Positions 32,960 through 57,945 of a DNA stretch of 64,000 nucleotides are shown here, piece by piece. Under the pieces are notes generated by a model. The model was not told where the DNA came from. It was given only the letters and a program-made list of their open reading frames with translations, and ran no database searches. Both the position numbers and the translations under genes were made by a program. The DNA is taken from sequence record NC_100372.1. One strand, written 5' to 3'. The first letter of the stretch is position 1; each line of letters begins with the position of its first letter. This DNA comes from a phage.

Positions 32960-33040
32960 AAACTGTTGACACAACGCTTCAGATTTAGTATCATTGTTTT
33001 CAAAGAGGGGTTGGTCCCTCTTCTTTAAAAGGAACACATT

Positions 33041-41357: not shown

Positions 41358-41386
41358 ACAAAAAGAAAGGGGCCTTTAAGCCCCTT
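41358..41386 (-). terminator. Intrinsic terminator for the minus-strand block
   Basis: Plus-strand aaggggc-ctttaa-gcccctt; on the minus strand it is followed by tctttttgtc; sits just past the stop of 41405-41824. Confidence 0.65.
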
Positions 41387-41404
41387 GATAATTCAGTTAA
41401 GAAA

Positions 41405-41824: not shown

Positions 41825-41968
41825 GGTGTTTTTACCTCTTAGTTAATTTTCTTACAACTTCCCTTCAAAAAAGAATATAGCAAAACTGCCGATCCCTGTC
41901 AACAAGGGATAGCATAATTTTTATGTGATCAAGGGGCTTTATCGCCCCTGACCATGCAACCTGTTGTA

Positions 41969-42232
41969 TTATTTGTTGCTCATCCAGTTTTCCCAAGCTG
42001 CCTGATAATCTGCCTCACTACGGCGGATCTCTTCTTGTTCTTCAAGCCGGATCTCTTCTTCCAGGTACCCCAAGATATCGGCTTTTTTGGTCTGGCGTAA
42101 CATCCAATCGTCTTTTTTGCGAGTAAAGATCTTGTACGCTTTCTCGCAAACTTCTTTTTTGCTACCTTTTTGGACTTCAAGAATTCTGTAAGCCATGTAC
42201 TGAACTAGTTTGAGCTGGTCAAGACGTTTCAT
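41969..42232 (-). CDS. Hypothetical protein
   Basis: 87-aa ORF. Confidence 0.4.
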   Translation of the reverse strand: MKRLDQLKLVQYMAYRILEVQKGSKKEVCEKAYKIFTRKKDDWMLRQTKKADILGYLEEEIRLEEQEEIRRSEADYQAAWENWMSNK

Positions 42233-42288
42233 GATGTTTTCCTCTTTATGTGGTTCGTTTCGATTAGTTGATAATATAGCATGAATTG

Positions 42289-42507
42289 CTATTTACTCAC
42301 AACAATATCGAAAACAAATTTTTCTTTGTTGTCAAAACTCACGTATCCGATTCGACCACGCAATCCCCGAGTAGTGCCGTATTCGTAACCATCAAGGCCT
42401 TTAACCTTCCAATCCGTACCCATTAAAACCGCATTATATTTCTGACCAACTACAAAAGCGCTACCAGTTGATTCAATGCAAACAACTTTAATTTTACGGG
42501 TTGCCAT
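42289..42507 (-). CDS. Hypothetical protein
   Basis: 72-aa ORF. Confidence 0.4.
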   Translation of the reverse strand: MATRKIKVVCIESTGSAFVVGQKYNAVLMGTDWKVKGLDGYEYGTTRGLRGRIGYVSFDNKEKFVFDIVVSK

Positions 42508-42569
42508 TTTCTTTCTCTCTTTTTGTGCGGTTCTGATTAGTGGGCCTTTTGGCCCGTGTCATTATCTTA

Positions 42570-42842
42570 TTACTTACGGCGGCAGAATTCAAGCGTTTTT
42601 AATTGATAATCTTCCTCAGCCTGAAGTACAACCGCCTCGATCATTTCGTTGGCATTGTTGAAGCCATACCCTTTAGCGAACTCGTCCGCACCACCTTCGT
42701 GATCATGTTCTGCGTTCATCGCTTCCACGAAATGGAATTCAAGATTATTGAGATAAGGGCTTGATGTTCCGTCCTCTTTTTCGATGAGATCCCAAATAGT
42801 ATTAAAACGTGATTCGACTTCTTGGTTAATCCAGCTTAACAT
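42570..42842 (-). CDS. Hypothetical acidic protein
   Basis: 90-aa ORF. Confidence 0.4.
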   Translation of the reverse strand: MLSWINQEVESRFNTIWDLIEKEDGTSSPYLNNLEFHFVEAMNAEHDHEGGADEFAKGYGFNNANEMIEAVVLQAEEDYQLKTLEFCRRK

Positions 42843-43054
42843 GGCGTTTTCCTCTCTTCTGGTTGTTGTGTGGGCACTTTTGCCCCTTCAAGATAAATGT
42901 TACCCCACCGCCTGGCAGGTGTCAACGGTTTTTATAGTTTTTTATATGACAGGCACCCCCGGTGATTGTCTCCCCCCGTCGCCAGGTGCCTGCCGTGAAA
43001 CAAGTATAACAAAAAACAGGACCATTACAAGCCCTGTTTTATGGTTTATAAAGA

Positions 43055-43246
43055 TTATATTTTTTCGCCTATATAGTCCGGTCGGTTTTTCTCTGTCATA
43101 CGCTTAAGCAATTCTTGCATGTTGCTTATGGCTTGCAGTGTATCCTCTTCAAGGGATGAATCGAGATAATCAGGATCATTCTTCACCTTGCAATGGTTAT
43201 GGTAACGTAGTACTGCCAGTACTTTTTTAACTTCTTCTGCTGTCAT
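43055..43246 (-). CDS. Hypothetical protein
   Basis: 63-aa ORF. Confidence 0.35.
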   Translation of the reverse strand: MTAEEVKKVLAVLRYHNHCKVKNDPDYLDSSLEEDTLQAISNMQELLKRMTEKNRPDYIGEKI

Positions 43247-43391
43247 TATTCCACCTAAAACAATGAGTTAATATATAACATTAGATCGCTGACTACCAGG
43301 ACAACACTGATCAGCACATACCTAACCATAAGGGGAAAGATCGCCAACATTGCCACCACGATCCCCATGGTAATAATTATCTTTCTCATGG

Positions 43392-43676
43392 TTAACGGTT
43401 CACGTAAGTTTTCCCGTTTACGGTTATCGGCAGATCCTCCAGGTCTGGATCTTCTTTAAGGTCGCGAGCAAGTTCACCGCACCGGACGCCCTCGAATCCG
43501 TAGTACTCTGTAGTGCCGTCCTTAAAAGTTTTTGCGGCAAGGCATAGGCGATAAGTAACCCCGATTTGATTGACGGCATGGATATCAGTTAGATCTACCT
43601 CTTTTGCCAACTCTTTAGCCATTACAGGCGCATTAAGTCCAACAACCAGGGCAACCACTGCGATCATCTTTTTCAT
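43392..43676 (-). CDS. Small secreted/periplasmic protein
   Basis: Signal-peptide-like N-terminus MKKMIAVVALVVGLNAPVMA followed by KE; two Cys in the mature part; 94 aa. Confidence 0.45.
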   Translation of the reverse strand: MKKMIAVVALVVGLNAPVMAKELAKEVDLTDIHAVNQIGVTYRLCLAAKTFKDGTTEYYGFEGVRCGELARDLKEDPDLEDLPITVNGKTYVNR

Positions 43677-43767
43677 TGTGTCTATCCTCTTTCTGCTACG
43701 TTTAAGGCGGCAGTAACCGCCTGTTTATGCTTTGTTGGTTAATTTTCGGGTATCTGTATAAATTAAA

Positions 43768-43983
43768 CTATGCTGTACGCTCAACTATAACAACGGCTTG
43801 AGGGATCTCACCTTCAACCACTATCAAGGCTTTTTTCTGCGTGATAGATATCTTTACCCGCTTCAGCGTGGCGGTAAAATCTTTCATTTCGTCACGTGGT
43901 GTTTTAGTGCAATACCAGATCTCAGGCTTGCCGATCTGCAAGTTGCGTAAAAATTCTGTTTTGCCTGTTTTGTTGGTGATCAT
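43768..43983 (-). CDS. Hypothetical protein
   Basis: 71-aa ORF. Confidence 0.35.
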   Translation of the reverse strand: MITNKTGKTEFLRNLQIGKPEIWYCTKTPRDEMKDFTATLKRVKISITQKKALIVVEGEIPQAVVIVERTA

Positions 43984-44039
43984 TTGCCCCTCTTTATTTT
44001 TTCATAATTTCAGGAGGGGCCTTTTCGGCCCCGCCAGGC

Positions 44040-44324
44040 TTATTTATTGATGGCGTGCAACGGGAAAGGTACGCCAGGTTGATAGATAACTTTTACAACC
44101 TCATCAGGGCAAAAGAAGTTGCAAAATTCACCGCAATAGGCTTCGTCTTCTTTTAGCTCTTCATCAACATACTCAAAAAAGTAGTCGATGCTTGGATAAT
44201 CCTGGCCGGGATTATAGTCGACCATTGTCAGGACTAGCTCAAGATCGTTGCGTAGGATATGCATACCAGCTTTTAAGTATTTGGCTTCCATTTCTACTAC
44301 ATCGCCAACGGTAACAATAGCCAT
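44040..44324 (-). CDS. Hypothetical protein
   Basis: 94-aa ORF. Confidence 0.4.
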   Translation of the reverse strand: MAIVTVGDVVEMEAKYLKAGMHILRNDLELVLTMVDYNPGQDYPSIDYFFEYVDEELKEDEAYCGEFCNFFCPDEVVKVIYQPGVPFPLHAINK

Positions 44325-44532
44325 GGTTTTAACTCCTATCTATCCGGTTAATGATTGGAGGCCTCACCGCCCCCCCCGACACCCTTTATTATCCATATTG
44401 TAGGACTTGATGCAAGTACTTCTTTAAAAAATTTTTAAGCGCCTTGGGGCCGCTGTAACGCCAAAATAATAAAGGCCATGCGGGTTGCATAGCCTTTAGA
44501 TGATTATATCGCTGTAGGCCCTGCTGGGGGCC

Positions 44533-44883
44533 TTATTTTGCATTATTTCCTATATTGCCGCTACGGTACCAGCGTTTACGGTGAAAATGGTAATAATCGC
44601 CATCGGCATTGAACATCAGATGGTTTTCAATAACCAGCTTACGAAGGTGGGCCGGATCTTGTTCCATTCTTGCCAGACTCTGGCGGCTGTTACGTAAGCG
44701 GATAAATTCCATATTCAGGCCGTTGATTGCAGCATGGATGTCAAAGTAACCACCTTTGAGACGTTCACGCATGGCGTTAATCTCAACACAATATACAGAT
44801 TTCTCACAAATCAAGGTATTAGCCAGGGCGCGGACCTGGGCAAGGGGGTTAAGCTCATTAAGGTAATATAGTTTTACTTTCAT
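44533..44883 (-). CDS. Hypothetical protein
   Basis: 116-aa ORF. Confidence 0.4.
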   Translation of the reverse strand: MKVKLYYLNELNPLAQVRALANTLICEKSVYCVEINAMRERLKGGYFDIHAAINGLNMEFIRLRNSRQSLARMEQDPAHLRKLVIENHLMFNADGDYYHFHRKRWYRSGNIGNNAK

Positions 44884-44900
44884 AAAATAACCTGCTGAAA

Positions 44901-45221
44901 CTAGTTTGAGAAAACATCGTTCACAATAGCGATCACAATGCCGTTCACCTTGTCACGGTCAACAATGCACAAATCGCCATAGATCATGTGGTAGTCTGGA
45001 TGATCTTTCACGGAATAATCAATGAGTGTTTTCTTATCGTCCAGCTTACTAACTTCCATTCTCATAACGATATGAGAATCATCAAAGGCATTATTCCGAA
45101 AAGTCATAACCTGACCGCCAGGGCACCCGGTGATCTCTACTTCCACGCCGTCTACGATCTGACCATCAAAGAAATAAAGATTATTAGCCTGGATAAACAT
45201 GATCATTACTCCTTTTTGCAC
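44901..45221 (-). CDS. Hypothetical protein
   Basis: 106-aa ORF; preceded on the minus strand by the 45-bp repeat element. Confidence 0.4.
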   Translation of the reverse strand: MQKGVMIMFIQANNLYFFDGQIVDGVEVEITGCPGGQVMTFRNNAFDDSHIVMRMEVSKLDDKKTLIDYSVKDHPDYHMIYGDLCIVDRDKVNGIVIAIVNDVFSN

Positions 45222-45244
45222 TGATTATTTTAACAGGGTTTAAA

Positions 45245-45289
45245 TTTACTTTATTGATGGCCCTGGAGTCAAGGCCATCTAAAAATAAA
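45245..45289. repeat. 45-bp direct repeat copy 1 with internal palindrome
   Basis: tttactttattgatggccctggagtcaaggccatctaaaaataaa; identical to 48988-49032; palindrome gatggcc-N10-ggccatc; the minus strand reads TTGACT inside the loop. Confidence 0.85.
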
Positions 45290-45291
45290 TT

Positions 45292-45492
45292 TTACAGGCC
45301 TACAATCTCTTTAATTCGTTTTACTGCTGCCTCAGCGCCTTGAGGGTAAAAATTATGGTAACCAATCACGCGGGTAATACTGATCGCCACTTGATGATCT
45401 TCATAATCGCCTTTGAAGATTTCTTGACCGTCAATCAGCACGGCAATTTTTTCTTCTTTTTTGAAGTTAATAACGCGGATATTGTTGCTCAT
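45292..45492 (-). CDS. Hypothetical protein
   Basis: Start at MSNNIRVINFKK within the longer track ORF 45292-45579. Confidence 0.4.
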   Translation of the reverse strand: MSNNIRVINFKKEEKIAVLIDGQEIFKGDYEDHQVAISITRVIGYHNFYPQGAEAAVKRIKEIVGL

Positions 45493-45971
45493 TTTGTTTC
45501 TCCTTTCTGGTCTTTGTGTTGGTGGGGATTGCTCCCCGTTGATTGTTATTATCCATATTTCCGGACCGGATTGCAACACCCTAGAAGAAAAATTTTTGAA
45601 AAAGTTAAGCCCCCAGGGATTGGGGGCCGTTATCAGTTACTTACAGCGATAAAGTACATCCCTACGCCTAACAATATTTCAAGGGCGATGATCTCAAGCC
45701 ATACCGTAACACGGCGCACCTTATCGGTGCGGGGCTTATCCTTGGGTGTCATCGTCTCCCCCTTTCCTCCTGTTAGCAGTGACGTGGTTTGCAATGGCCC
45801 CCAGGAGTATTATCACCACGCACATTACAAGAAAAATTATCTCTGTCGTTGTTCGATCCATTGTTATAAAATTCCTTAAGATCAGGCCTGAAAATAAAGC
45901 TTTCGTTATTGAATCCATCCCGCCAGGCGGCTGGCTTCAAATCTTCACTAAATGGATTAATTAACGTGGTA

Positions 45972-46343
45972 TTATTTAAACGGCTGGCCCACATATTTTC
46001 TATTCCTCTCAAATAAGCGATCCGCCTCAGTTAAACAAATCTCATGGGCGTGATCTCTGGTTTTAGCTTCATCGAAAACCTGTTGTGCAAGGCTGCAACG
46101 TAGGGAGACTGGAAGATCACTATAATAGGCGTTGACAAACGTTTGAGCGTCGTACAGGTCTGAAAATACTTTACCCTTTCTATTATTCCCCTTGTCAACA
46201 ATTGCAAGGATAACCAATACAATAGTTGCAACCACTCCCAGGAAGATAGATATAATAAACCATAAAAAGGCGGATCTACCCATCTTGCCAGCGATCCAGG
46301 CGTTAAACAAGGCAACTAATATAGCCAAAATAATAAATTCCAT
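45972..46343 (-). CDS. Membrane protein (two predicted TM helices)
   Basis: MEFIILAILVALFNAWIAG and FLWFIISIFLGVVATIVLVILAIV; start trimmed to MEFIIL. Confidence 0.4.
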   Translation of the reverse strand: MEFIILAILVALFNAWIAGKMGRSAFLWFIISIFLGVVATIVLVILAIVDKGNNRKGKVFSDLYDAQTFVNAYYSDLPVSLRCSLAQQVFDEAKTRDHAHEICLTEADRLFERNRKYVGQPFK

Positions 46344-46410
46344 TCTATGTACCTCTTTTACAGTTCTGATTAACAATAAGGCGGCAAATATGCCGCCGCC
46401 TGTTACCTGA

Positions 46411-46827
46411 TTAAAAATTATCGCCGTAAATCTTTCCGCTTTCTACCCATACCACCACGCGGGGCATACTATCCCACACATCTTGTTTTAGATTGAGCGA
46501 GTGCAGTTCTTCGGTGGTGCTCATACCGGGCACGGGCTGATTGTATACTGCAAAACGACCGCCTGCATAATCATAGGCCAGGGTTAAATCACACTGGATC
46601 ATCTTTTTGATCATGGCATTAAGCATAGCGTTAGCCGCGTACTGATCTCGTTTTAATGGCAACTCTTTAATCAGTTTGCGATAGTTTTCGATATGGTCGC
46701 ACACTGTTTCACGCGGAAGATCTTTCATATCTTCACGGAATGTAACCAGGTTAAACATAACGGTGTCAATAGCTTTAGTAGTGTTTTTCATGATGTTTTC
46801 CTCTTTGTTTTGTGGGAGGCAAGTCAT
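46411..46827 (-). CDS. Hypothetical protein
   Basis: 138-aa ORF. Confidence 0.4.
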   Translation of the reverse strand: MTCLPQNKEENIMKNTTKAIDTVMFNLVTFREDMKDLPRETVCDHIENYRKLIKELPLKRDQYAANAMLNAMIKKMIQCDLTLAYDYAGGRFAVYNQPVPGMSTTEELHSLNLKQDVWDSMPRVVVWVESGKIYGDNF

Positions 46828-46882
46828 CTCGCCCCCTTGAGTTTTAAATATAGCAGGTTTTTAGATTATTGCAACACTTTAT

Positions 46883-47506
46883 TTATGAAAAACTCATCTC
46901 ACCATATTCATCCACATCAAACCGCCAATCATTGGCTTCAATAAGGCCGATCAGGTTTTCGGTAGTAAACTGTTCAAGATAGGCCTCCTCCAGGTCTACA
47001 TAAACCTTGCGGGATAGCTCCCGTACCGTCTCGGTGATCAGCTCTTCCAGGTCTTCCACTTTGTTTTCTTGTTTGGCGGTCAGATCTAGCCAGGTGGTAT
47101 CAATGTATCCGCTTACAGTGTTTTCATGGCTGTAATGGCTGTACTTGTCGCGTTCAACACTGGCTGATAACTCGCCATCGTGCATTGTGCCGAACAAGTG
47201 ACGAATTGATCGGAACTTGGTCAGGGCCTTTACTTTACGCAAGAATTTTTCTAAATCCACGTTTTCAGCACTGATTGACGCGCCGTCACCCTGGCACCAA
47301 AAGCCGGACCAATGTACTTCGGTATCTTCAAGGCCGTACTCTGGAAAAACTTGTTCTTTATAATATTCAATTACACTTTCTGCGAAAAAATCCTCTCCGC
47401 TGTGTTCTTCTCTTTCGCGGACCATTTCAATAGCTTTTTCTTTTTGTTCGTCGGTCAGCACGTCGAAAGATAAATTGCAACCTGTGGTAATGTTAACGGT
47501 GGTCAT
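46883..47506 (-). CDS. Hypothetical acidic protein
   Basis: 207-aa ORF with an AGGAGA RBS. Confidence 0.45.
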   Translation of the reverse strand: MTTVNITTGCNLSFDVLTDEQKEKAIEMVREREEHSGEDFFAESVIEYYKEQVFPEYGLEDTEVHWSGFWCQGDGASISAENVDLEKFLRKVKALTKFRSIRHLFGTMHDGELSASVERDKYSHYSHENTVSGYIDTTWLDLTAKQENKVEDLEELITETVRELSRKVYVDLEEAYLEQFTTENLIGLIEANDWRFDVDEYGEMSFS

Positions 47507-47534
47507 GATATTTTCTCCTGTTTTCTTTATTAGT

Positions 47535-47591
47535 GGCGGGAAGTTTTCCCGCCTGTGTGTTTAATTATACTTATTGAGATTTACTTGTCAA
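47535..47591 (-). promoter_or_regulatory. Promoter-plus-leader-hairpin module (minus strand)
   Basis: Minus strand reads TTGACA (plus 47586-47591), 15-nt spacer, TATAAT (plus 47565-47570), then hairpin GGCGGGAA/TTCCCGCC (47535-47553), then RBS and the ATG at 47506. Confidence 0.45.
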
Positions 47592-47841
47592 CACTATTTT
47601 TTAAATTATTGTGGCGTAAAATGTTCAAGATCTCTTCAACGTCATCAACACGGCGGTAATTTTTAAACGCTACCAATTGCCCCATGATTTTAATCACTGG
47701 GCGGCCTTGCCAGTGCCCCTGGAGAAAGCGCGCCTTGACTTTATCGGTGGAGCTATCACGCCACCAAATGGCCTTGTTGTTGCAGTAGTAAAAATTATTC
47801 AGGACAACATCAACCTTATCAAAATTTTTTAATTTACGCAT
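47581..47841 (-). CDS. Hypothetical protein
   Basis: 86-aa ORF. Confidence 0.4.
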   Translation of the reverse strand: MRKLKNFDKVDVVLNNFYYCNNKAIWWRDSSTDKVKARFLQGHWQGRPVIKIMGQLVAFKNYRRVDDVEEILNILRHNNLKNSVDK

Positions 47842-48082
47842 GGCGTTTACTCCTTTCTCTCTTTGATGTGGTTAGTATAGCTAACCTGTTTAAGATGTCA
47901 AGCTTTAAATAAAATCACTGTCAATAATATTTTTAACGCCATAAAACGGCCCTGGGCGATGTTTTCAGGTTAAGAAAGGCGATTGCATAGGTGGGGGCCT
48001 TTTCGGCGCTTACAGGGCCAACCAGGGGCGCTATTCGTAGGATAGAAATAAAAAGCCCCGCACAATGGCGGGGCGTTGGTTG

Positions 48083-48304
48083 TTATTTGTCTTTATGGCG
48101 GTATCGTTCTGCCTGTCGTTCACGTTCCAAAAGTAGGCCAGGCAATTTACGATCATAATGATTTCGCCAGATCTTTCCAAATCTTTTTGGCTTATTTAGT
48201 TTATTGTTACGCTGGCGGCGTTCCGGCAGCTCTTCGGAATCATGAGATCGCTTTACAATCTTCTCAAAATTAATCTTCATATATTCCCCCCTTGCTAACT
48301 TCAA
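48083..48304 (-). CDS. Hypothetical basic protein
   Basis: 73-aa Arg/Lys-rich ORF. Confidence 0.35.
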   Translation of the reverse strand: MKLARGEYMKINFEKIVKRSHDSEELPERRQRNNKLNKPKRFGKIWRNHYDRKLPGLLLERERQAERYRHKDK

Positions 48305-48641
48305 TATTTGCCTGAATAGCCCGGATACGGCGCTTTATAACTTCCTGGTCTGTGTGATCGTATCCCCAAAAGTCTACAATTTTTGCGCCCCCCGCCTCCA
48401 GGCGGTATAGTGTTTCCTGCATCTTGTAAGCCGGGACCGGTCGCGGTGTTACTTGGTCACCTTCTTTATTTTTATACTTTATAATATAATCTTCGTTATC
48501 GTTGAATGCCCAAAATGGATATTTTGCAAGGGCGTTGCTTTCTTTTTCGTTCTTAGATTGGATCTTGTTTACAATTAAAGCCGTAGCAATAGCGCCGATA
48601 ATAAAACTTGCACCGCTGATCATGTTACTTTCTCCTTTCAT
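48270..48641 (-). CDS. Hypothetical protein with N-terminal TM helix
   Basis: MISGASFIIGAIATALIVNKI; 123 aa. Confidence 0.4.
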   Translation of the reverse strand: MKGESNMISGASFIIGAIATALIVNKIQSKNEKESNALAKYPFWAFNDNEDYIIKYKNKEGDQVTPRPVPAYKMQETLYRLEAGGAKIVDFWGYDHTDQEVIKRRIRAIQANIEVSKGGIYED

Positions 48642-48698
48642 GGTGTTAATAAATTATCTTTATAGATGGCCCTGCAGCCAGGACCACCGAAAAAATAA

Positions 48699-48944
48699 CT
48701 ATTTCACAATGCCCACAAAACAGATCCCGCCTTCCCCGACGTAGGCAATATCGGTCACTTTGTAGTCGGTTAAGATCTGTTTATTCAGATCATTAATAAA
48801 ATCGGTCATTGCGTTGGTGTAGTTGTCTTCCATGTCTAGGGAATAATCCCAGGTGTAAACCTTTTTACGTCCGAAGCCTTTAACAACAACACGGGCACCT
48901 TTGGTGTTGGTTGGTGCATAGTATTTAGTGATTAGTGCTGCCAT
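48699..48944 (-). CDS. Hypothetical protein
   Basis: 81-aa ORF; preceded on the minus strand by copy 2 of the 45-bp repeat. Confidence 0.4.
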   Translation of the reverse strand: MAALITKYYAPTNTKGARVVVKGFGRKKVYTWDYSLDMEDNYTNAMTDFINDLNKQILTDYKVTDIAYVGEGGICFVGIVK

Positions 48945-48987
48945 GGTTTTAACTCCTCTGTATTAGTTCAGTGTTAACAGTGTAAAG

Positions 48988-49032
48988 TTTACTTTATTGA
49001 TGGCCCTGGAGTCAAGGCCATCTAAAAATAAA
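48988..49032. repeat. 45-bp direct repeat copy 2 with internal palindrome
   Basis: Identical to 45245-45289; flanks also similar (taaa(t/g)tttact). Confidence 0.85.
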
Positions 49033-49033
49033 C

Positions 49034-49438
49034 TTAGTAAGTTTTCAGTACTTTACCGTCCAACCTGTCAAGCTGGATCTCGATAGCTGCAGAAAACCTA
49101 TTGTACACCACGTCGCCCATGGAATCCAACCAGTCTATGACGTTATACACCTGCTCTTTGTTCTTGCAGGTCCGGATCCGTTTCATGATGTAAGCCGGAT
49201 CAATATTGGTACTTTCGTTGGTGTTCCCCTGTACCTGATTTGCCGTATTAGTTACATCTTTAATGGCCTTTACCACCACCTGGAAGGGCTTTAAGGTGCC
49301 TTTTGCGTTCATCTCACGCGCTTTTGCGGCGCGGTTGTTATATGTTACACAACGGCGGCAAATGTTCACCAAATGCATGTCAATAATTTTTTCATCGTTT
49401 GCCAGTTCGTTCATGATGCGGCGTACGTTCTTATTCAT
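49034..49438 (-). CDS. Hypothetical protein
   Basis: 134-aa ORF. Confidence 0.4.
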   Translation of the reverse strand: MNKNVRRIMNELANDEKIIDMHLVNICRRCVTYNNRAAKAREMNAKGTLKPFQVVVKAIKDVTNTANQVQGNTNESTNIDPAYIMKRIRTCKNKEQVYNVIDWLDSMGDVVYNRFSAAIEIQLDRLDGKVLKTY

Positions 49439-49457
49439 GATCTTTTTCCTTTGTGTT

Positions 49458-49514
49458 GGCGGGAAACATTCCCGCCTTTTGTGACTAGTTTACTTGAATT
49501 TTGCAGCGTGTCAA
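49458..49514 (-). promoter_or_regulatory. Promoter-plus-leader-hairpin module (minus strand), second copy
   Basis: Hairpin GGCGGGA-aacat-TCCCGCC (49458-49476); minus strand TTGACA at plus 49509-49514; same architecture as 47535-47591. Confidence 0.4.
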
Positions 49515-49520
49515 CAATTT

Positions 49521-49919
49521 TTATTCGTGGGCGCATGTTACAATGTGCTTTTTATAGCCCAGGTGGTTAGCAAGTGCCGACAAAAACTCTTCTTCATAGA
49601 TCCAGCCGTTGGCAGTGATCCCCATAGCATTTAATGCGCTCTCAAGTGCTGCATTAGCTTTATCGTAACCGTGACCGCTCGCCTTCCCGCCAGTATAACC
49701 GTACTTATTGTTCTTGTTGTCGTGAATCCAAAAAACGCAGTATTGAGTGTTCCCGCTGGCGGCGGCATAATACCGGATCTCAGCTACTTCGTGCAAATTA
49801 TTGTCATCGTCCAGGCCCACCAGATTATAAGCCTTGTAAAATCCACGATCACGGCGGCAGTTCTTGACATCAGAAAAAGAAAAGTCCGCATTATCAAAAT
49901 TAAAGGTAGTGGTTTTCAT
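49521..49919 (-). CDS. Hypothetical protein
   Basis: 132-aa ORF. Confidence 0.4.
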   Translation of the reverse strand: MKTTTFNFDNADFSFSDVKNCRRDRGFYKAYNLVGLDDDNNLHEVAEIRYYAAASGNTQYCVFWIHDNKNNKYGYTGGKASGHGYDKANAALESALNAMGITANGWIYEEEFLSALANHLGYKKHIVTCAHE

Positions 49920-49983
49920 GATTTTATCCTCTTAGTGTCTTTTGTGCTTTTAGTGTATTTGGTGTCGGACTGTATGTCAATAC

Positions 49984-50181
49984 TTATTTTTTATTAAACC
50001 AGTGGTTGATCTGGCCTTTTGTCAGGGCGCAACGATTAAGCTGTTGCCGGGTATAGCTCTGACCGCGACGGAATTTATAAAGGCCTTGCCCGTTGTTGAT
50101 GGTTACGTCCACCTGGCAAATCATTTGATCGGTGACGGCCTGGCGAGTGTTGCGACGTACTTTAATTCCGTAGGCGTTCAT
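49984..50181 (-). CDS. Hypothetical protein
   Basis: 65-aa ORF. Confidence 0.35.
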   Translation of the reverse strand: MNAYGIKVRRNTRQAVTDQMICQVDVTINNGQGLYKFRRGQSYTRQQLNRCALTKGQINHWFNKK

Positions 50182-50264
50182 GATTTTTATCCTCTCTGTT
50201 AATTAGTGTGGTGTTGTTCACCTTGCGAGGATAAGAATAACAGAACTATCCGAGCTGTCAACCA

Positions 50265-50438
50265 TTAGTTAGAATTATTTTTTGGGCAGAATTCTCCAGC
50301 CGCCGCCCCTGCCAGGTTAACCATCATTTTTTCGTACTCTTCTTTATGTTCCAACGCTCCCGCCATAGCCTTTTCAACCAGGGCGATAGCCTCAGCGTCA
50401 TTAATCGCTACATTTCCAGGGATCCTATTACCTTTCAT
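50265..50438 (-). CDS. Hypothetical 57-aa protein (MKGNRIPGNVAINDAEAIALVEKAMAGALEHKEEYEKMMVNLAGAAAGEFCPKNNSN)
   Basis: AGGAGG RBS 7 nt upstream of the ATG (minus strand); first gene downstream of the 50.4-51.5 kb ORF-free region; below the ORF-track threshold. Confidence 0.4.
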   Translation of the reverse strand: MKGNRIPGNVAINDAEAIALVEKAMAGALEHKEEYEKMMVNLAGAAAGEFCPKNNSN

Positions 50439-50652
50439 TTTTGTACCTCCTCTTCAATTGTTACCTGCCCTGTAGCATAGGCCTACCAGGTTTGCAAGCT
50501 TTCACTCTCTCCTACCTGGTCAGTCAGGTCCTGCCAGGCTGGCCCCGCCAGGTTGCAGCGGTTGGTGTATTATGTTAGAAAAAATTTTTGAAGAAGTGTT
50601 GACAGCGGCCCCGCCAGGTGGCACAATATACCTATCGAAAGGACGGCAGGCA

Positions 50653-50845
50653 CCGGTGACGGGGGAGACAACCACCGGGGATGGGCGCTGCATAAAATGA
50701 GAACGGTTATCATTATCATTTAAAAATTTATGCAAAAAATCCTTGCTTTCTTTGTCCTGTGTGATACTATAATAACAAGCCGGGGCAACAGGGGCCGGGA
50801 GACAATCACCGGGGGTGCCCGTTATTCTGCAAACGAGAATGATTA
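50653..50845. repeat. Two copies of a roughly 60-bp composite element: GGGAGACAAYCACCGGGGRTG, about 15 nt, GAGAAYGRTTATCATT, then an A/T-rich tail
   Basis: Copy 1 at 50653-50710 (gggagacaaccaccggggatgg ... gagaacggttatcatt), copy 2 at 50787-50845 (gggagacaatcaccgggggtgc ... gagaatgattatcatt). Confidence 0.75.
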
Positions 50846-50980
50846 TCATTCAAAATTCTAAATGAGAACTTTTCGCATTTCATAAATTTAGTTAGCATGC
50901 TAATTACCTACCGTGACAATTCTATATAAAATAATACCTCCTTAAATATTTCCATATACAAATTTTAAAAATCCATTTCC

Positions 50981-51150
50981 GAAAACGAAAAATCGATTTC
51001 GTCCCCAAAAATTTCAGGTCGAGCTCCGGAACGATTTCCAGAAAATCTGATTCAGAAAACGAAAAACAGATCGAGTACTAAGAAATTTATCGAGAAAAAT
51101 TTTCAGAAAATTCAATCTTTGAAACGAAAAACAGATCGAGTACTGAGAGA
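50981..51150. repeat. Imperfect tandem direct repeats, about 66-74 bp period, core GAAAACGAAAAA(C/T)(A/C)GAT(C/T)
   Basis: gaaaacgaaaaatcgatttcg 50981, gaaaacgaaaaacagatcgagtact 51055, gaaacgaaaaacagatcgagtact 51121; ATCCATTT(T/C) also recurs at 50971, 51324, 51341 and 51396. Confidence 0.75.
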
Positions 51151-51386
51151 GATGTATCAAAACCTGCTGAGAATAATGGGTTTATTGTTATAAAGGGTCA
51201 AAGGTAAGCTGGGAAAGTTCCGGTAGAAGGGTGAGAGTATGTGCGGAAAATCTGGAATAGTAACTTAAAGTACGGTGCGAACGATAGAATGAGCAGCACA
51301 TCTTATCGCGCCTGTCTTGAAAAATCCATTTTAGTTTTCGATCCATTTTCTGATTTTCTAAGAATTTTAAAATATCCGGCTAGGTA

Positions 51387-51417
51387 AAATATCAAAAGGA
51401 GGAAATCCATTTTAGAA
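51387..51417 (-). terminator. Candidate terminator for minus-strand transcription entering the ORF-free region
   Basis: aaggagga-N15-tcctcctt; on the minus strand followed by ttgatatttta; large loop lowers confidence. Confidence 0.4.
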
Positions 51418-51455
51418 ATCCTCCTTATACTTGATGTGCCAGGGATTTTCAAGTA

Positions 51456-51785
51456 TCAACTGTCTTTGTTTTTAGGCTTGTGCATACGTAGAGGTATGGT
51501 CTTTATAACATTCCATCTGCCCAACCCCTCCCAGTTCCAATTGTGAGCGTGATACCCAGTTATGCATGCACTGCTGGCGTGATCATAAGCATAAGAGAAC
51601 GCTATGCGAACCAGGTGGGGCCAGTCCCTCCACGGCTGTGGACCGTAAGCCTTTCTCCAACACCGACACAAACTAATTGTCTCAAGAATAGGTAGAATAA
51701 CAAATCCATATACCGCCACCAAAATGGTAAGAGCAATGATTGTCAGGAATACATACCCTGCAGTTGAAATAATGATCTCTGTCAT
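51456..51785 (-). CDS. Membrane protein
   Basis: Hydrophobic N-terminal half (IISTAGYVFLTIIALTILVAVYGFVILPIL); 109 aa. Confidence 0.4.
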   Translation of the reverse strand: MTEIIISTAGYVFLTIIALTILVAVYGFVILPILETISLCRCWRKAYGPQPWRDWPHLVRIAFSYAYDHASSACITGYHAHNWNWEGLGRWNVIKTIPLRMHKPKNKDS

Positions 51786-51985
51786 TTGTCATCCCCTTTC
51801 TTACGGATATAGATGTGAGAGCCTGCTTGTACATAAATTTCCCGACCATCTTCTGCAAAGATGTGGAATACACGGTCGCCTTCGTATTCAATACGGGATA
51901 TCTTCATAACGGTCTTCCCACCCGGAATGCGGATCTCATCACCCACAGCAATGTTCCATGCAGATTTAAGCTTAAACATCTGCAC
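51782..51985 (-). CDS. Hypothetical protein
   Basis: 67-aa ORF, coupled. Confidence 0.4.
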   Translation of the reverse strand: MQMFKLKSAWNIAVGDEIRIPGGKTVMKISRIEYEGDRVFHIFAEDGREIYVQAGSHIYIRKKGDDK

Positions 51986-52217
51986 CCCCCTTTGGGAGCT
52001 CTAACTCTGGCATAGCCATATACGCCACGACAGGGTTGTAATCAAAGTAGAAATGACCGTTAATTATCCCAGTTTTGTGGGCATAGTCACCAGATCCTGC
52101 AAGAACAATCTCGCAAACTCCGAAATCCACCTCGCCATTCTCATCTGCCATGGCTACAATATACTTTCCTAGAGGCATGTTTTTAACGCCGTCTACAAAT
52201 GTCCACCCTTTGTTCAT
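51972..52217 (-). CDS. Hypothetical protein
   Basis: 81-aa ORF. Confidence 0.4.
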   Translation of the reverse strand: MNKGWTFVDGVKNMPLGKYIVAMADENGEVDFGVCEIVLAGSGDYAHKTGIINGHFYFDYNPVVAYMAMPELELPKGGADV

Positions 52218-52237
52218 ACTTTATCTCCTGCACTTTC

Positions 52238-52570
52238 TTAAGGTAACCAGTAAACAATTTCGCCTTTCAGTTCCATGTCGTTACCGACATAGATTTTCCA
52301 GCCATCCATTTTAGCCACTGCAGGAGTGAAGCCCGTAGAACCACTAACCTCTTTCCAAGTCCCGTAGTCAGGTTGCCAGATATAGAATCCACCTCCCTTG
52401 TCCCATGCTCCATATACCACATCGAGCAGGTTGCCCATTGCAACAATAGTAGGCCGTGGGAATAATACATCTACAGATGCGCCACAATTTCGGGTAGATT
52501 TTAAATTACAATCCCAAAAGATGTCTGCCAGTGTGGCGGCGATAGCTTTACGTCTTTCTAATGTTACCAT
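52238..52570 (-). CDS. Hypothetical protein
   Basis: 110-aa ORF. Confidence 0.4.
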   Translation of the reverse strand: MVTLERRKAIAATLADIFWDCNLKSTRNCGASVDVLFPRPTIVAMGNLLDVVYGAWDKGGGFYIWQPDYGTWKEVSGSTGFTPAVAKMDGWKIYVGNDMELKGEIVYWLP

Positions 52571-52580
52571 GGCACGATAC

Positions 52581-52772
52581 TCACTTGTTGTTAAGAAGTT
52601 CTAAAACTTTCTGTTTTACTTTATCAAGGTCTGTTGATTCAAAAATTGTGCGATATCCCCAACTTTGCCCATAGGAATAACTGCAATCCCCGTAACACCA
52701 TTGCTCAACTTGATAGTATTCAAGGAATGGGTGCTGTCTGACTATGATACCGTCTCGATTAAAAATTACCAT
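52581..52772 (-). CDS. Hypothetical protein
   Basis: 63-aa ORF. Confidence 0.35.
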   Translation of the reverse strand: MVIFNRDGIIVRQHPFLEYYQVEQWCYGDCSYSYGQSWGYRTIFESTDLDKVKQKVLELLNNK

Positions 52773-52835
52773 AATTTATCCCTCTCTGCTAGTCTATGTT
52801 TGTATTATATACTGCAGTTTTCAGATGTCAACCTT

Positions 52836-53030
52836 TTACAGGTTACTCCAGTATAATCGGCATTTACACTTCGGGCAATGAGGTTCTTTTATGTAATAAC
52901 CATCAGTCTTTGGAACACTTTTTGGTGCAGTTTTAAGATTGTACCGAGTAAAGCACCGGAAGCAGGTTACCTCTCCTACCTGTTGATCGTTTATCCACTC
53001 ACCAGAGTAAAGCTCTTTCTTGTTTCTCAT
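52836..53030 (-). CDS. Small zinc-ribbon protein
   Basis: CFRC...CPKCKC pattern; start at MRNKKELY with a GGGGAGAG RBS. Confidence 0.4.
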   Translation of the reverse strand: MRNKKELYSGEWINDQQVGEVTCFRCFTRYNLKTAPKSVPKTDGYYIKEPHCPKCKCRLYWSNL

Positions 53031-53281
53031 AATTCTCTCCCCAATCCTCTGCAATCTTATACCAGAATCTCCAGCCAGAAAGCACACGGGAACACTTTGA
53101 GGATTGAATCTTTACTAGGCTCGGAAGTTCTTTTTCCGTAGGGCAGGTAGAAATACCCTCCTGCAGATTCAAACATGGCTCCTTCTGTTGTATCTATCAC
53201 AGCTAGAATTAAGATTTTAGTCTCCATAGTGCTCCCCTGTCTTAATCGTTGTGGTGACTATACCACCTTAAAATATAGCTG

Positions 53282-53821
53282 TCAACACTCTTTGTACTCC
53301 ACCACGATAATATCTATATCAAAAGTGGCAAGGTTAATAATGTCCTCTACATGTTCCCACTTCAAACCGCCTATGCCGCACCCGATCTTAGGGATGTAGA
53401 ATGGTAAAATCGACCCCTCAAATACTTCATTGACTCGCTCAAAGCCTTTCAGTATTGAGAAATATTCAGCATTAGGCCCTGGGTAGAACTGAGTATACAG
53501 ATTTATTCCGTAGACAATACCTCTCGGAGATAAGTGCTCCCAGCGGGAGAACGCGCCCAGTTTACTTAGGCAACCGTGCATAGTCATTTTATCAGCTTCC
53601 AATGCTTGAGGGAACTCACGGGCAATCTGTTTTGCTACACCCTTACCCATTGTGTGGAAGCAGTTACAACCGTGGATCAGGTGACCATCACCGCTCTTAA
53701 AAAGGGAGATTAAATCTCCCTCTACAGTATCAATAATCACGATATTCCAGCTCCTCTTCCACAATTTCAAAAAACTCAGTCCAGCACTGTGGCATATTGG
53801 AGTTACCGAAGTGGCTTTCAT
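53282..53821 (-). CDS. Putative macro-domain (ADP-ribose binding/processing) protein
   Basis: VIIDTVEGDLISL, IHGCNCFHTMGKGVAKQIAREF and PKIGCGIGGL resemble the macro-domain GDIT...NAAN...GGGV...G-rich loop pattern; start uncertain (overlaps the upstream ORF). Confidence 0.45.
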   Translation of the reverse strand: MKATSVTPICHSAGLSFLKLWKRSWNIVIIDTVEGDLISLFKSGDGHLIHGCNCFHTMGKGVAKQIAREFPQALEADKMTMHGCLSKLGAFSRWEHLSPRGIVYGINLYTQFYPGPNAEYFSILKGFERVNEVFEGSILPFYIPKIGCGIGGLKWEHVEDIINLATFDIDIIVVEYKEC

Positions 53822-54155
53822 AGTAAAGGTTTTTACCGCTCGGAAGATAGAAATCTGTTACCTCATAAAATCCACAATCGTCGCACTCTCCCTCTTCAAA
53901 CTTGGCCTTAACCTTAATGCCGAGGAAGGTGAAAAGTTTATGGATATCTTCGGTCTCGAACTCCCAATTAATGTTGTTTTCCGCATCGGTGTAAAACTGG
54001 ATCAGTAGGCCATCATCCATTTTTCCAAAATATTCTGTGAAGTAGCTTCCTTCCCAGAAGTCTTTGTGACAAATAATATCCATGCGCTTGCCCATAATAA
54101 AGGTGTGGGCGTTTCGTGCATCGTCACGAATCAGTTTTGGCATTTCATAAATCAT
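53730..54155 (-). CDS. Hypothetical protein
   Basis: 141-aa ORF. Confidence 0.4.
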   Translation of the reverse strand: MIYEMPKLIRDDARNAHTFIMGKRMDIICHKDFWEGSYFTEYFGKMDDGLLIQFYTDAENNINWEFETEDIHKLFTFLGIKVKAKFEEGECDDCGFYEVTDFYLPSGKNLYYESHFGNSNMPQCWTEFFEIVEEELEYRDY

Positions 54156-54220
54156 CGTAGTTCTCCAGGATCAATAGGTGGTGCTACAGGAAGATCATAA
54201 AACATGGCGATCACATTCTC

Positions 54221-54418
54221 TTACGCAGGAATTGCTTCAAACAGGCCGTTATCGATACCATCCTTCAAGTAAAGATTATACTCTATGTCAGTATCTGTGT
54301 AAAGGGCAGCATCTAGCATTCTATCTGTGAGTCCATCCATTGGGTGGAGAAACCACCACCCACGCCAGTCAAAGTAACAACCTGGTGCATCTTCTCTCAC
54401 ACGGATTCGATAAATCAT
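54221..54418 (-). CDS. Hypothetical protein
   Basis: 65-aa ORF. Confidence 0.35.
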   Translation of the reverse strand: MIYRIRVREDAPGCYFDWRGWWFLHPMDGLTDRMLDAALYTDTDIEYNLYLKDGIDNGLFEAIPA

Positions 54419-54514
54419 GGGCAGTGGCCTCCTGTTAGTTACACATCCCAGTTTTCTTCGTTCATCACATCCTCCAGCTCAACAAGGTTATAATTGCACA
54501 CCTTACAACCCGTG

Positions 54515-54931
54515 TCAACAGAAAACTTCAACAAATTCTTCCACAGTTTTAATGTCATGGGAAAAAGGTTTGCGGCTATAACGGGCAATAGCACTGTCAA
54601 CCACCGCCCGGTACTCCAAATCTTCAGAATATTTCATGAAGCATTGCAACGTCTCTGGACAGATAGCCAGATAGCTCCACCACCCCTCTTCAGATTGGTA
54701 GTCAAATCCCATACTCTCTAGCCACGAAGCGTATACACCTGCACCTTCCAGCCAGTGAGTATTTTCATCAAGAAACTTGTTCACAGTCATGTGAGCTTCT
54801 AAGCATTTATCCAGCTCTTTTCCGTTAACCAGCCACGCACTGACAGTGGCGCATCCAAGATCCACAGATTGAGCTGATAGATTGTATTGGTCATAGTTCT
54901 CAGGTTTAACAATGATATCTTCTAATGTCAT
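54515..54931 (-). CDS. Hypothetical protein
   Basis: 138-aa ORF. Confidence 0.4.
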   Translation of the reverse strand: MTLEDIIVKPENYDQYNLSAQSVDLGCATVSAWLVNGKELDKCLEAHMTVNKFLDENTHWLEGAGVYASWLESMGFDYQSEEGWWSYLAICPETLQCFMKYSEDLEYRAVVDSAIARYSRKPFSHDIKTVEEFVEVFC

Positions 54932-54993
54932 TTTTCAGTCCTCTATATACAAAAATGCCCCACCCTTTCGGGTAGGGCTATGTTAACTAGATG

Positions 54994-56220
54994 TTAAAAA
55001 GGTATGTCATCATCAAAGGCGTACTGTGCCGGATTCTGATCCATCGGGTCGTCTTCCGCATCATCTACAGGAGGAGCGTCTACAGTGTTTTGCTGTGGGG
55101 CGGCTTCCTGTTTGGCAGCTTGAGGCTCTTGATGGTCAGTGGCTCCAGCACCGTTCTTGATCCAATCATACAACGGTTCAGCAAGATTAGTCAAGACATC
55201 TTTTGCCTCTGCAGTAATTGCTACTGCAAAATCATCAACTTTCGTTTTCTTGTCAATACGGCGACAAGCGTTCAATACCGCATTACCAACACTGGCACCT
55301 ACTTCATCTTCAGTTCGGTTAGTGGCTTGAGCGTACTCTTTCTTAAGCTCGATGGTGACCACGTGCAGTGTTTTAGCCACATCTAAAGGGCTGTCAATCT
55401 TAAACCCGCGATCCAGGATGATCTGCAATGCATTGATACTGTGCCCTGTCTCTACACCGATGGGGTCGTAAGAGGATTTACGCTTACCACCAGAACCTTG
55501 TGTACCGTTCTCTGCTTTAGGCGGGTAGGCCTTGAAGCCGCTGATAATATTCCCGGTGTCTTTGTCAACAATAGCTGCAACACGACCACCTACCACCAGG
55601 TCTTTAAGCTGCTCATCAGAGACAACCATAGCACCTTCACCAATCTTGTGATCATTGACAGTAACCACGTTGCCAACAATCTGAGTCACATCGCCATAGA
55701 TGCGTAAAACGTCCTGATTGGCATTCTGCTGAGGTTTCTGCTTCTGGCCTTGTGATTGTGCACCTTGTTGCTGTTTTTGCTGCTGAGTCGCTGCTGGAGC
55801 CTCTCCTGCACCCAGCTTGACCATCTTAGCCAGGGAGCCTTTGTAATAGGTCTTACCGTTATGCTCGTTTGCCTTCAAAGGGATATTTACGATCCATCCT
55901 GGCGTTACAGTTTCCCACTTGTCATCAATTTTAACAGAGACAGAGTCTTGATGACCCGGTTTAAGCAGCTTATCACCCATACTGATCCAAACTTCTTCAC
56001 CACCTTGAAGCAGGTTATCAGAGGAATCCAGTTCAGAAATCAGTAAAGAGATGGTGTGGCTGGATTCAATTTTCTTACCTTGCCACACAGTGGTTTTAAT
56101 ACCTGTTGTAGGATCAGCACCTTTGATAGGCTTGATGCTGACACGTTTAATCATGCCGTGAGCCAGTAAAACAGTTTCACGCGGATTCATCGGGTTAGCG
56201 AATTGTTGAATAACGCTCAT
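54994..56220 (-). CDS. SSB-like protein with bacterial SSB C-terminal tip
   Basis: C-terminus ...DDPMDQNPAQYAFDDDIPF matches the E. coli SSB tail (...MDFDDDIPF); Gln/Gly-rich linker; 408 aa; the N-terminal region is not obviously a canonical SSB OB fold. Confidence 0.55.
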   Translation of the reverse strand: MSVIQQFANPMNPRETVLLAHGMIKRVSIKPIKGADPTTGIKTTVWQGKKIESSHTISLLISELDSSDNLLQGGEEVWISMGDKLLKPGHQDSVSVKIDDKWETVTPGWIVNIPLKANEHNGKTYYKGSLAKMVKLGAGEAPAATQQQKQQQGAQSQGQKQKPQQNANQDVLRIYGDVTQIVGNVVTVNDHKIGEGAMVVSDEQLKDLVVGGRVAAIVDKDTGNIISGFKAYPPKAENGTQGSGGKRKSSYDPIGVETGHSINALQIILDRGFKIDSPLDVAKTLHVVTIELKKEYAQATNRTEDEVGASVGNAVLNACRRIDKKTKVDDFAVAITAEAKDVLTNLAEPLYDWIKNGAGATDHQEPQAAKQEAAPQQNTVDAPPVDDAEDDPMDQNPAQYAFDDDIPF

Positions 56221-56585: not shown

Positions 56586-56668
56586 TATGGAATCTCCGAT
56601 TTTATTTGAACAACATAGAAGGAGACACCATTTTAGCATCTCCTTCTGCAAATTACAACAGGTATTTG

Positions 56669-56914
56669 TTAGCCAATTACTTCGAAAGTACCCCAACTCC
56701 CGTTCAGCAGGCAGGTGATCGGATCACCATCATCGTCAATTATTTCAAAGTTTTCAACATCCAGAATATGGTCATCGAACACAATGCTCTTATCGCCACC
56801 ACCAGAAATAACAGCGTATTCCTTACCTTGTGTTAGGTTCTGGCAACCTTTGCCGCCGAAACCAACTTCAACACAACGTACTTTCTGTCCTGCGCGAGCA
56901 ACTACTCCAGCCAT
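56669..56914 (-). CDS. Hypothetical protein
   Basis: 81-aa ORF. Confidence 0.4.
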   Translation of the reverse strand: MAGVVARAGQKVRCVEVGFGGKGCQNLTQGKEYAVISGGGDKSIVFDDHILDVENFEIIDDDGDPITCLLNGSWGTFEVIG

Positions 56915-57628: not shown

Positions 57629-57945
57629 GCTTCCTCGTCATCTAATGAGTTGAAGATTTCACCGAAGTATTCTAAGACTTCCAGCTCACGGGTGGTGCAG
57701 AAAACACAGTCCCCGTTGTCATCTTCGATAACGGCCTCTTTACCAAGAACATCCACTTCAAATTCGTCGTTTAACAGAACGGAACCTGTGTAAACTTTAT
57801 CTGCCGTGCAGTCCCGAAAAGCAGAGTCCTTCTCCAAGTAGTCTGGCTTAACCTTGGCTTTAATTCGTTGATATTGTTTGGTCATTGCTGTGGTCCCCTT
57901 TCGTTTTGATAGGGCCATTATATTAGGCCCTATCGCTATTGTCAA
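57625..57945 (-). CDS. Hypothetical protein, paralog family C
   Basis: AFRDCTADKVYTGS...DDNGDCVFCTTRELEV; paralogous to 57949-58203. Confidence 0.4.
   Translation of the reverse strand: MTIAIGPNIMALSKRKGTTAMTKQYQRIKAKVKPDYLEKDSAFRDCTADKVYTGSVLLNDEFEVDVLGKEAVIEDDNGDCVFCTTRELEVLEYFGEIFNSLDDEEA

Follow-up and report, generated by a model that had tools for sequence, protein, structure and literature searches.

Promoter-proximal GC hairpins recur in expression cassettes of the early region of an rV5-like phage

Why would a phage place the same GC-rich hairpin behind the promoters of two of its early genes? The question is raised by a 64,000-nucleotide (nt) stretch of phage DNA from sequence record NC_100372.1 (hereafter referred to as the window), in which an original prediction had placed two promoter-plus-hairpin modules on the minus strand, at 47535–47591 (M1) and 49458–49514 (M2). 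Both modules lie exactly there, and their arrangement is real, non-random and conserved. Our analysis suggests that M1 and M2 are paralogues, two copies of one compact cassette for expressing early genes within a hyperplastic region of ORFans. The cassette consists of an AT-rich tract, a sigma-70 promoter close to consensus, a GC hairpin with its G-rich arm first, an unstructured A- or CA-rich leader, and a Shine–Dalgarno (SD) sequence with its ATG. We favour, at a probability of about 0.55, the reading that the hairpins are 5′-proximal mRNA-stabilizing elements of the ompA type. A 3-kb query around the modules matched 122 phage records, 111 of them over at least 80% of the query; all 111 are rV5-like myoviruses (Vequintavirus), and the closest record is vB_EcoM-ECP26 (97.6% identity). 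M1 and M2 sit in a long minus-strand run of small early genes that corresponds to rV5 open reading frames (ORFs) 164–238, and the GenBank annotation of rV5 carries no promoter at either position.

The two modules share a common anatomy (Table 1). Their predicted promoters score 12/12 (M1) and 10/12 (M2), both with 16-nt spacers, and each is preceded by an AT-rich tract, aataatttaaaaaatagtg in M1 and gaataaaaattg in M2. The hairpins have identical arms, GGCGGGAA and TTCCCGCC, and can be drawn with a 3-nt loop on an 8-base-pair (bp) stem or a 5-nt loop on a 7-bp stem; the 8-bp stems, with the G-rich arm first, reach −13 to −14.6 kcal/mol. In each predicted leader fold (−14.6 kcal/mol; z = −5.1 for M1 and −3.7 for M2), the hairpin is the sole structure and the SD region is unpaired. 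The sense-strand tails 3′ of the hairpins, ACUAAUAAAG and AACACAAAGG, contain no U-run, as the original prediction had also claimed. Thus, the hairpins have the short GC-rich stem and small loop of a Rho-independent terminator, but are not classical intrinsic terminators of the sense strand; the true terminators of the same block (48074..48046, 41386..41367 and 54978..54957) do carry a U-run.

The 8-mer GGCGGGAA occurs five times in the window against 0.69 expected, a count reached in none of 100 shuffles, and for the complete 8-3-8 palindrome two occurrences compare with 0.18 expected. These excesses, together with the fold z-scores and the recurrence of hairpins 10–11 nt after a −10 element, make chance an unlikely explanation for the modules. 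The fifth copy of the 8-mer, at 49684–49691, is a solitary half-site within an ORF, and we took it as a chance occurrence. The motif also resembles the eukaryotic E2F site, a resemblance that we take to be irrelevant in a phage. The exact palindrome was found in 115 scattered IMG/VR contigs with no informative context, and a search of positions 41000–58000 against Rfam 15 yielded no family match, the sole match being a chance small nucleolar RNA (E = 0.8).

M1 and M2 belong to a wider class of promoter–hairpin cassettes, which we call class A. The minus strand of the window holds at least five of them, whose hairpins start 10, 10, 10, 10 and 11 nt after the −10 element and begin with unrelated arms (GGCGGGAA twice, GGGGGCGAG, GGGGA and GGGCA), and a counterpart lies on the plus strand (Table 1). 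Perfect GC hairpins have a density of 8.3 × 10−4 per nt in the window, so that roughly 0.1–0.3 would be expected by chance in a 5-nt slot behind 25–67 promoters, compared with the five or six observed. In rV5, eight cassettes have this layout, with the hairpin 9–12 nt after the −10 element, and in Avunavirus phages the hairpin likewise begins at 10–11 nt. Among the 66 distinct promoter–hairpin combinations in all scanned sequences (16 Vequintavirus genomes and further rV5 and Av-05 loci), 55 have the hairpin at 9–12 nt and 31 at exactly 10 nt. A cassette of MaxBurger and phita32 that is not present in the window carries a hairpin of the same family as those of M1 and M2, GCGGGAA-TAC-TTCCCGC, 12 nt after the −10 element.

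The class A stems are 5–9 bp long, and the leaders that follow them are CA- or A-rich (for example, ACACAAAG, ACCAACACAAAG and ACTAATAAAG). In all hairpin families, the sense strand has the G-rich arm on the 5′ side. Moreover, the G·U pairs of class A, including the two in the hairpin at 46836..46815, are valid in the sense RNA only. Polarity and G·U pairs together point to a strand-specific role at the RNA level, and the tight spacing from the −10 element, independent of hairpin sequence, suggests a role connected with the 5′ end of the transcript.

We then consider conservation among 15 related Vequintavirus genomes taken from the GenBank phage records (16 genomes with the window). Both hairpins persist in all 15, in agreement with the conservation across relatives that the original prediction had proposed as a check. 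Minor-allele cells amount to 0.008–0.039 per site in the hairpin arms, compared with 0.04–0.11 in the spacer, discriminator and leader. The −35 elements are invariant in both modules and the −10 hexamers nearly so, and the segment from SD to ATG is invariant at M1 and variable at M2. The M1 hairpin is identical in 11 of the 15 relatives. In MaxBurger and APECc02, its loop is inverted from AAC to GTT between intact arms, and in ECP26 and MiataMamis the hairpin is weakened, ECP26 having lost two bases from one arm only. The M2 hairpin is identical in 13 of the 15, the exceptions being phita32 and MiataMamis. In phita32, the loop is inverted (TGT to ACA, the reverse complement of the usual loop minus one base) on a 7-bp stem, and in MiataMamis the hairpin reads GGCGGTTGA-TAC-TCAGCCGCC, with the inner stem swapped and the pairing kept (−15.6 kcal/mol). 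The hairpin at 45537 behaves in a similar manner: its GGGGA/TCCCC arms never change among relatives, its loop occurs in five forms and, in some relatives, a sixth pair has been added to the stem with compensation. The orthologue of the 207-amino-acid (aa) gene behind M1 is preceded, in the Avunavirus phages Av-05 and 24-2-1, by TTGACA, an 18-nt spacer and TACTAT, followed after 11 nt by the hairpin GGCG-ATACAC-CGCC. Thus, with unrelated stems at the same spacing and with compensated and loop-inverted variants, the pairing is kept and the stem sequence is free.

A third loop change was seen in FV3, where the loop of a hairpin at 43704–43722 is reverse-complemented (TTACCG/CGGTAA) with its arms in place. 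Together with those at M1 and M2, it suggests three independent palindrome-inversion events with a template-switch-like mutational signature.

The following chain of events would account for these features. Initiation by host RNA polymerase would be expected about 7–8 nt after the −10 element; in M1, M2 and the 45537 cassette, the predicted start is an A preceded by a C, at the seventh or eighth nucleotide. The hairpin would then be the first structure made in the mRNA, leaving about 2–4 nucleotides of the 5′ end free of pairing, and would probably slow the decay that begins there with RppH and continues with RNase E, as the stem-loops of ompA and papA do, while the open leader and SD sequence would leave translation initiation unhindered. 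RNase E is much slower to cleave RNA whose 5′ end is base-paired (PMC3997798), and RppH is blocked by a 5′-terminal stem-loop (PMC8833179). The closest precedent is found in Escherichia coli, in which the ompA and papA mRNAs carry 5′-terminal stabilizing stem-loops (Emory/Bouvet/Belasco 1992 and Arnold 1998, cited in PMC3997798). As in those mRNAs, a simple hairpin lies a few nucleotides from the (here predicted) 5′ end, its pairing is kept and its stem sequence is unimportant, and a single-stranded leader with a strong ribosome site follows. Nevertheless, the phage leaders are about 45–55 nt long, compared with 133 nt in ompA, and the phage element, whose 5′ end is a predicted one, is reused serially before many ORFans. 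According to Emory, Bouvet and Belasco in 1992, a stem-loop within 2–4 nt of the 5′ end reportedly stabilizes an mRNA regardless of sequence; the 3–4 unpaired nucleotides counted from the predicted start would fall within this limit. The original prediction had suggested RNA processing or stability elements. The fixed position just after the predicted start, the structure-conserved but sequence-free stems, the G-first polarity and the sense-only G·U pairs best support the stability half of that suggestion.

The closest described kind of element is the PeSL (promoter-early stem-loop) cassette of T4-type phages, the stem-loop probably being used here as a 5′ leader hairpin. A PeSL cassette consists of an AT-rich tract, a sigma-70 consensus promoter, a poly-G/poly-C stem-loop, which may occupy any of five positions, and an SD sequence with ATG; one subclass places the stem-loop downstream of the −10 element (PMC2839356). 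In RB49, phi1 and other T4-type phages, ORFans in hyperplastic regions are flanked by PeSLs, through which they are shuffled (Arbiol et al. 2010, PMC2839356; Comeau et al. 2014, PMC4122927). The cassettes in the window have the same parts and recur at high density among the small ORFans of an early region that is likewise hyperplastic, a context that the original prediction had not mentioned. The promoter-overlapping form is also present, as TTGACA-atagc-GATAGGGCC-taaTATAATg-GGCCCTATC at 57934..57907. By contrast, the lineage is Vequintavirinae rather than T4-type, and the post-start position is dominant in Vequintavirus cassettes, whereas none of 30 strong RB49 promoters in 50 kb has a hairpin at +8 to +12 and 8 of the 30 have one over or between the −35 and −10 elements. 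The DNA of the M1 cassette matched Vequintavirus records only and showed no homology to the PeSLs of RB49 or phi1, so that the relation is one of analogy or convergent design rather than demonstrable homology.

Several observations weigh against the stability reading. The transcription start is a predicted one, and a literature search turned up no study mapping transcripts in this group of phages. Roughly half the strong promoters of the block lack a hairpin of this kind, a strong promoter without a hairpin precedes the homologue of the 207-aa gene in jumbo phages 121Q and RaK2, and the weakened M1 hairpins of ECP26 and MiataMamis are tolerated. RppH and RNase E need at least two unpaired 5′ nucleotides and prefer at least three (PMC8833179); since both enzymes already act at 2–3 unpaired nucleotides, any protection may be partial or modest. 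In the genuine PeSLs of RB49, most of the stem-loops lie across the promoter and are unable to influence the transcript made from it, so a shared function could lie elsewhere. Furthermore, a purely structural role does not explain why the 8-bp arms are identical at two loci, where promoter spacers and leaders are only about 30–40% alike. The identical arms would most simply be a slowly evolving remnant of a duplicated cassette: if stems change only through compensated steps while the flanks drift freely, the arms would outlast their surroundings.

The alternative that survives best, unlikely but compatible with stabilization, is drawn from PeSLs, and holds that the hairpin acts on RNA reading through from the upstream gene, where it could attenuate transcription or, after cleavage in the AU-rich leader, serve as a barrier that shields the new 3′ end, the level of each gene then being set chiefly by its own promoter. 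The cassettes do follow the upstream stop codon directly, with no terminator between, and one PeSL stem-loop reduced downstream lacZ expression as much as rrnB T1 (Arbiol et al., PMC2839356). In addition, some cassettes in the window, like RB49 PeSLs, have a stem-loop over the −35 or −10 element, which is present only in read-through RNA, and intercistronic hairpins without a promoter occur at 44015–44032 and 43704–43722. However, intrinsic termination should be weak without a sense-strand U-run, and an action on read-through RNA needs no tight spacing of 9–12 nt from the −10 element, yet that spacing is seen across unrelated hairpins.

Two further ideas address the shared arms. The bolder one, to which we give little credence, is that a dedicated phage device shields the 5′ triphosphate of early mRNAs from a host sensor (the decay machinery or an RNA-directed defence) through a G-first hairpin fixed at +4, that the shared GGCGGGAA arms mark two genes for a sequence-specific co-regulator, and that the loop inversions reflect frequent palindrome extrusion in replicating DNA. 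Slightly harder still to sustain is the proposal that the 8-3-8 palindrome is a DNA operator, at which a dimeric phage or host protein bound to the GGCGGGAA half-sites near +13 would co-regulate both genes. The identical arms in otherwise dissimilar surroundings favour this proposal, as does their conservation in most relatives; the position resembles that of lacO, loop inversion leaves the half-sites unaltered, and the additional MaxBurger and phita32 cassette described above supplies a third hairpin. The half-sites, however, are not consistently conserved: M2 of MiataMamis (GGCGGTTGA/TCAGCCGCC) swaps the inner half of both arms with pairing kept, the Av-05 orthologue retains GGCG/CGCC only, and M1 of ECP26 is altered by two bases in one arm only. 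Sister cassettes at equal spacing carry unrelated hairpins, and neither G-first polarity nor sense-only G·U pairs would be expected of a duplex-DNA site. In the window and in about 42 kb of rV5 (105–138 kb and 1–9 kb), the palindrome occurs at the M1 and M2 sites only, and the ten neighbouring ORFs scanned contain no DNA-binding domain.

It is very improbable that the hairpins terminate antisense (plus-strand) transcription and so guard the early promoters from converging polymerases. The terminator scan does list both for the plus strand, where weak T-rich tails follow, TTTTGTGACT for M2 and TGTGTGTTTA for M1, and the A-run before M2 is conserved; yet the M1 tail is a poor U-run, the remaining class A hairpins have no upstream A-run, the block yielded no strong plus-strand promoter with a gene, and a sense G·U pair becomes an A·C mismatch in the antisense RNA. 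Least probable of all is the processing half of the original suggestion, that the hairpins are RNase III sites: they do lie between cistrons and close to leaders, and hairpins between cistrons are where the early mRNAs of T7 are processed, likewise in a polycistronic early region that the host polymerase transcribes (PMC6121014), but stems of 5–9 bp contrast with the 60-nt, two-helix structure around an internal loop of T7 R1.1 (PMC6121014), and the GGCGGGAA hairpins, with 8 bp and no internal loop, are too short.

The architecture of an RNase III site belongs instead to another repeated hairpin of the same region, which we term class B and which the original prediction did not contain. T7-type RNase III sites need roughly two helical turns of duplex. 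Class B, with the sequence UUUAUUUUUA-GAUGGCCUUG-ACNN-CAGGGCCAUC-AAUAAAGUAAA, forms an irregular hairpin of 21 bp (−20 to −25 kcal/mol, with z as low as −6.9), so that the two-helix architecture of about 20 bp is found here and not in the GGCGGGAA hairpins. Like T7 R1.1, it spans about 50 nt, an asymmetric internal loop separating helices of about 10 bp each (PMC6121014). Among 42 distinct copies, 96.1% of cells are paired and four pairs have changed on both sides; the covariation score was not reached by any shuffle, and registers slid by 1–3 columns drop to 35–56% paired. The G·U pairs are conserved in the sense orientation. Class B is the better candidate for an RNase III site. Its loop contains a −35-like TTGACT, which we considered as a promoter and rejected: copy 3 lacks it and keeps the structure, indicating that TTGACT probably serves stem pairing and is not a promoter element. 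A small ORF downstream of copy 3 (48083–48280, minus strand) encodes a T7 gp1.1 domain (PF08200, E = 2 × 10−11), an arrangement much like that in T7, where gene 1.1 comes after the RNase III site R1.1 (PMC6121014).

Class B cassettes also bound gene-sized insertions and deletions (indels), which we read from local blasts against the relatives, and in this respect resemble PeSLs. In FV3, rV5, MaxBurger, MiataMamis and phita32, two direct copies flank about 570 bp (572 bp in FV3 and rV5, holding rV5 ORFs 192 and 193). At this site, just one copy is present in the window, ECP26 and phiWec189, and the two blast pieces overlap over window positions 49035..48986. In 241Ecol, the next gene is missing via the same kind of junction. 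The GGCGGGAA modules themselves did not bound any indel seen in the 15 relatives. A hotspot of gene-sized indels lies at 43977–43989 (minus strand), where relatives hold 688–1198 bp of extra genes; its junctions show imperfect microhomology between SD–ATG segments (AGGGGTAAATCATCATGAT versus AGGTGGGCAAATGATCACC), so that translation-start regions also act as recombination points. Elsewhere in the early block, a 63-aa ORFan (52581–52772, minus strand) is 87–89% identical in protein, and 83% identical in DNA over about 200 nt, to its counterpart in RB49-like Krischvirus, pointing to recent exchange between unrelated myovirus families. DNA similarity between the window and Krischvirus JEP8 is confined to that shared gene.

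The original prediction had listed three further GC hairpins between genes. Those at 42542–42555 (z = −3.5) and 44015–44032 (z = −2.4) hold up, whereas the third, at 47990–48010, does not: its z-score is +1.35, and 190 of 200 shuffles fold equally well. The canonical terminator close to that site (Table 1) had not been listed.

Table 1 Features of the M1 and M2 modules and of related elements. All positions run 5′ to 3′ on the strand given, except those of the two ORFans.
Feature	Position	Strand	Description
M1 −35 TTGACA	47591..47586	−	Invariant in 16 genomes
M1 −10 TATAAT	47569..47564	−	16-nt spacer; TATACT in many relatives
M1 hairpin GGCGGGAA-AAC-TTCCCGCC	47553..47535	−	Begins 10 nt past −10, predicted mRNA +3 to +5
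M1 leader	47534..47504	−	15-nt A-rich unstructured stretch; SD AGGAG 47519..47515; 8 nt; ATG 47506..47504
M2 −35 TTGACA	49514..49509	−	Invariant in 16 genomes
M2 −10 TAAACT	49492..49487	−	16-nt spacer
M2 hairpin GGCGGGAA-TGT-TTCCCGCC	49476..49458	−	Begins 10 nt past −10
M2 leader	49457..49436	−	CA-rich, AACACAAAGGA...; SD AAGGA 49451..49447; ATG 49438..49436
Third class A cassette	46874..46815	−	TTGCAA-16-TATATT; 10 nt; hairpin GGGGGCGAG-AUGA-CUUGCCUCC 46836..46815; CA-rich leader
Fourth class A cassette	45576..45524	−	TTGCAA-17-GATAAT; 10 nt; hairpin GGGGA-GCAA-TCCCC 45537..45524
Fifth class A cassette	42925..42872	−	TTGACA-17-TAACAT; 11 nt; hairpin GGGCA-AAAG-TGCCC 42885..42872
Plus-strand counterpart	32966..33022	+	TTGACA-17-TATCAT; 8 nt; hairpin AAGAGGG(G)-loop-(T)CCCTCTT 33003–33022
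Class B copy 1	49036..48986	−	Upper stem 10 bp, GC; internal loop 2/3 nt; lower stem 11 bp, AU; −25.1 kcal/mol, z −6.9
Class B copy 2	45294..45245	−	21-bp irregular hairpin
Class B copy 3	48701..48650	−	Diverged, GGTGGTCCTG...CAGGGCCATC
Hairpin GGGCC-AAAA-GGCCC	42555..42542	−	After a weak promoter-like site; at a gene-content boundary among relatives
Intercistronic hairpin GGGGCC-GAAAA-GGCCCC	44032..44015	−	No promoter, no U-run; indel hotspot 43977–43989 just downstream
Intrinsic terminator GCCCCGC-N6-GCGGGGC, then UUUUUAUUU	48074..48046	−	Canonical, with U-run
ORFan behind M1	46883..47506	−	207 aa; phrog_5162, function unknown
ORFan behind M2	49034..49438	−	134 aa; phrog_13245; Vequintavirus only

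Apart from the T7 gp1.1-like domain described above, Pfam and PHROGs assigned no function to the ten ORFs adjoining the modules. The third class A cassette bears on a start codon: in the ECP26 annotation of the equivalent 138-aa ORF, the ATG at 46827 falls within the hairpin loop (46789–46836, minus strand). The PHROG profile begins at residue 13 and a good SD sequence precedes 46791, so the protein is probably 126 aa long from the ATG at 46791, and 46827 is probably a mis-called start. The early block also contains a 557-nt stretch free of ORFs (50896–51458, minus strand), in which direct repeats of 55 nt and 47 nt surround the core GAAAACGAAAAACAGATCGAGTACT; its equivalent in rV5 is the 'non-coding' box (PMC3606486), and Avunavirus 24-2-1 has similar repeats in its own long gap. 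At the other end of the window (160–245, plus strand), four tandem 21–22-bp units, GTGTCCGTATCACGGACAGTTA, are spaced by 22, 21 and 21 bp, each containing the 7-3-7 palindrome TGTCCGT-atc-ACGGACA. The array lies about 85 nt upstream of a TTGACA at about 328 and resembles a set of operators or iterons for a dimeric DNA-binding protein.

Collectively, our findings imply no new mechanism; they concern known design principles, newly described in this phage group, and are of ordinary to moderate interest in that sense. They extend to the rV5-like (Vequintavirinae) phages used in therapy and typing a design, the composite promoter/stem-loop cassette, that had until now been described for T4-type phages, and explain sites of gene-sized indels in the ORFan region. 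The cassettes are compact natural expression parts, combining a predicted strong promoter, a 5′ hairpin and an open leader. Furthermore, they provide an annotation rule, a GC hairpin of any sequence 9–12 nt after the −10 element, which could sharpen the definition of early transcription units and start codons in these phages, such as that at 46827.

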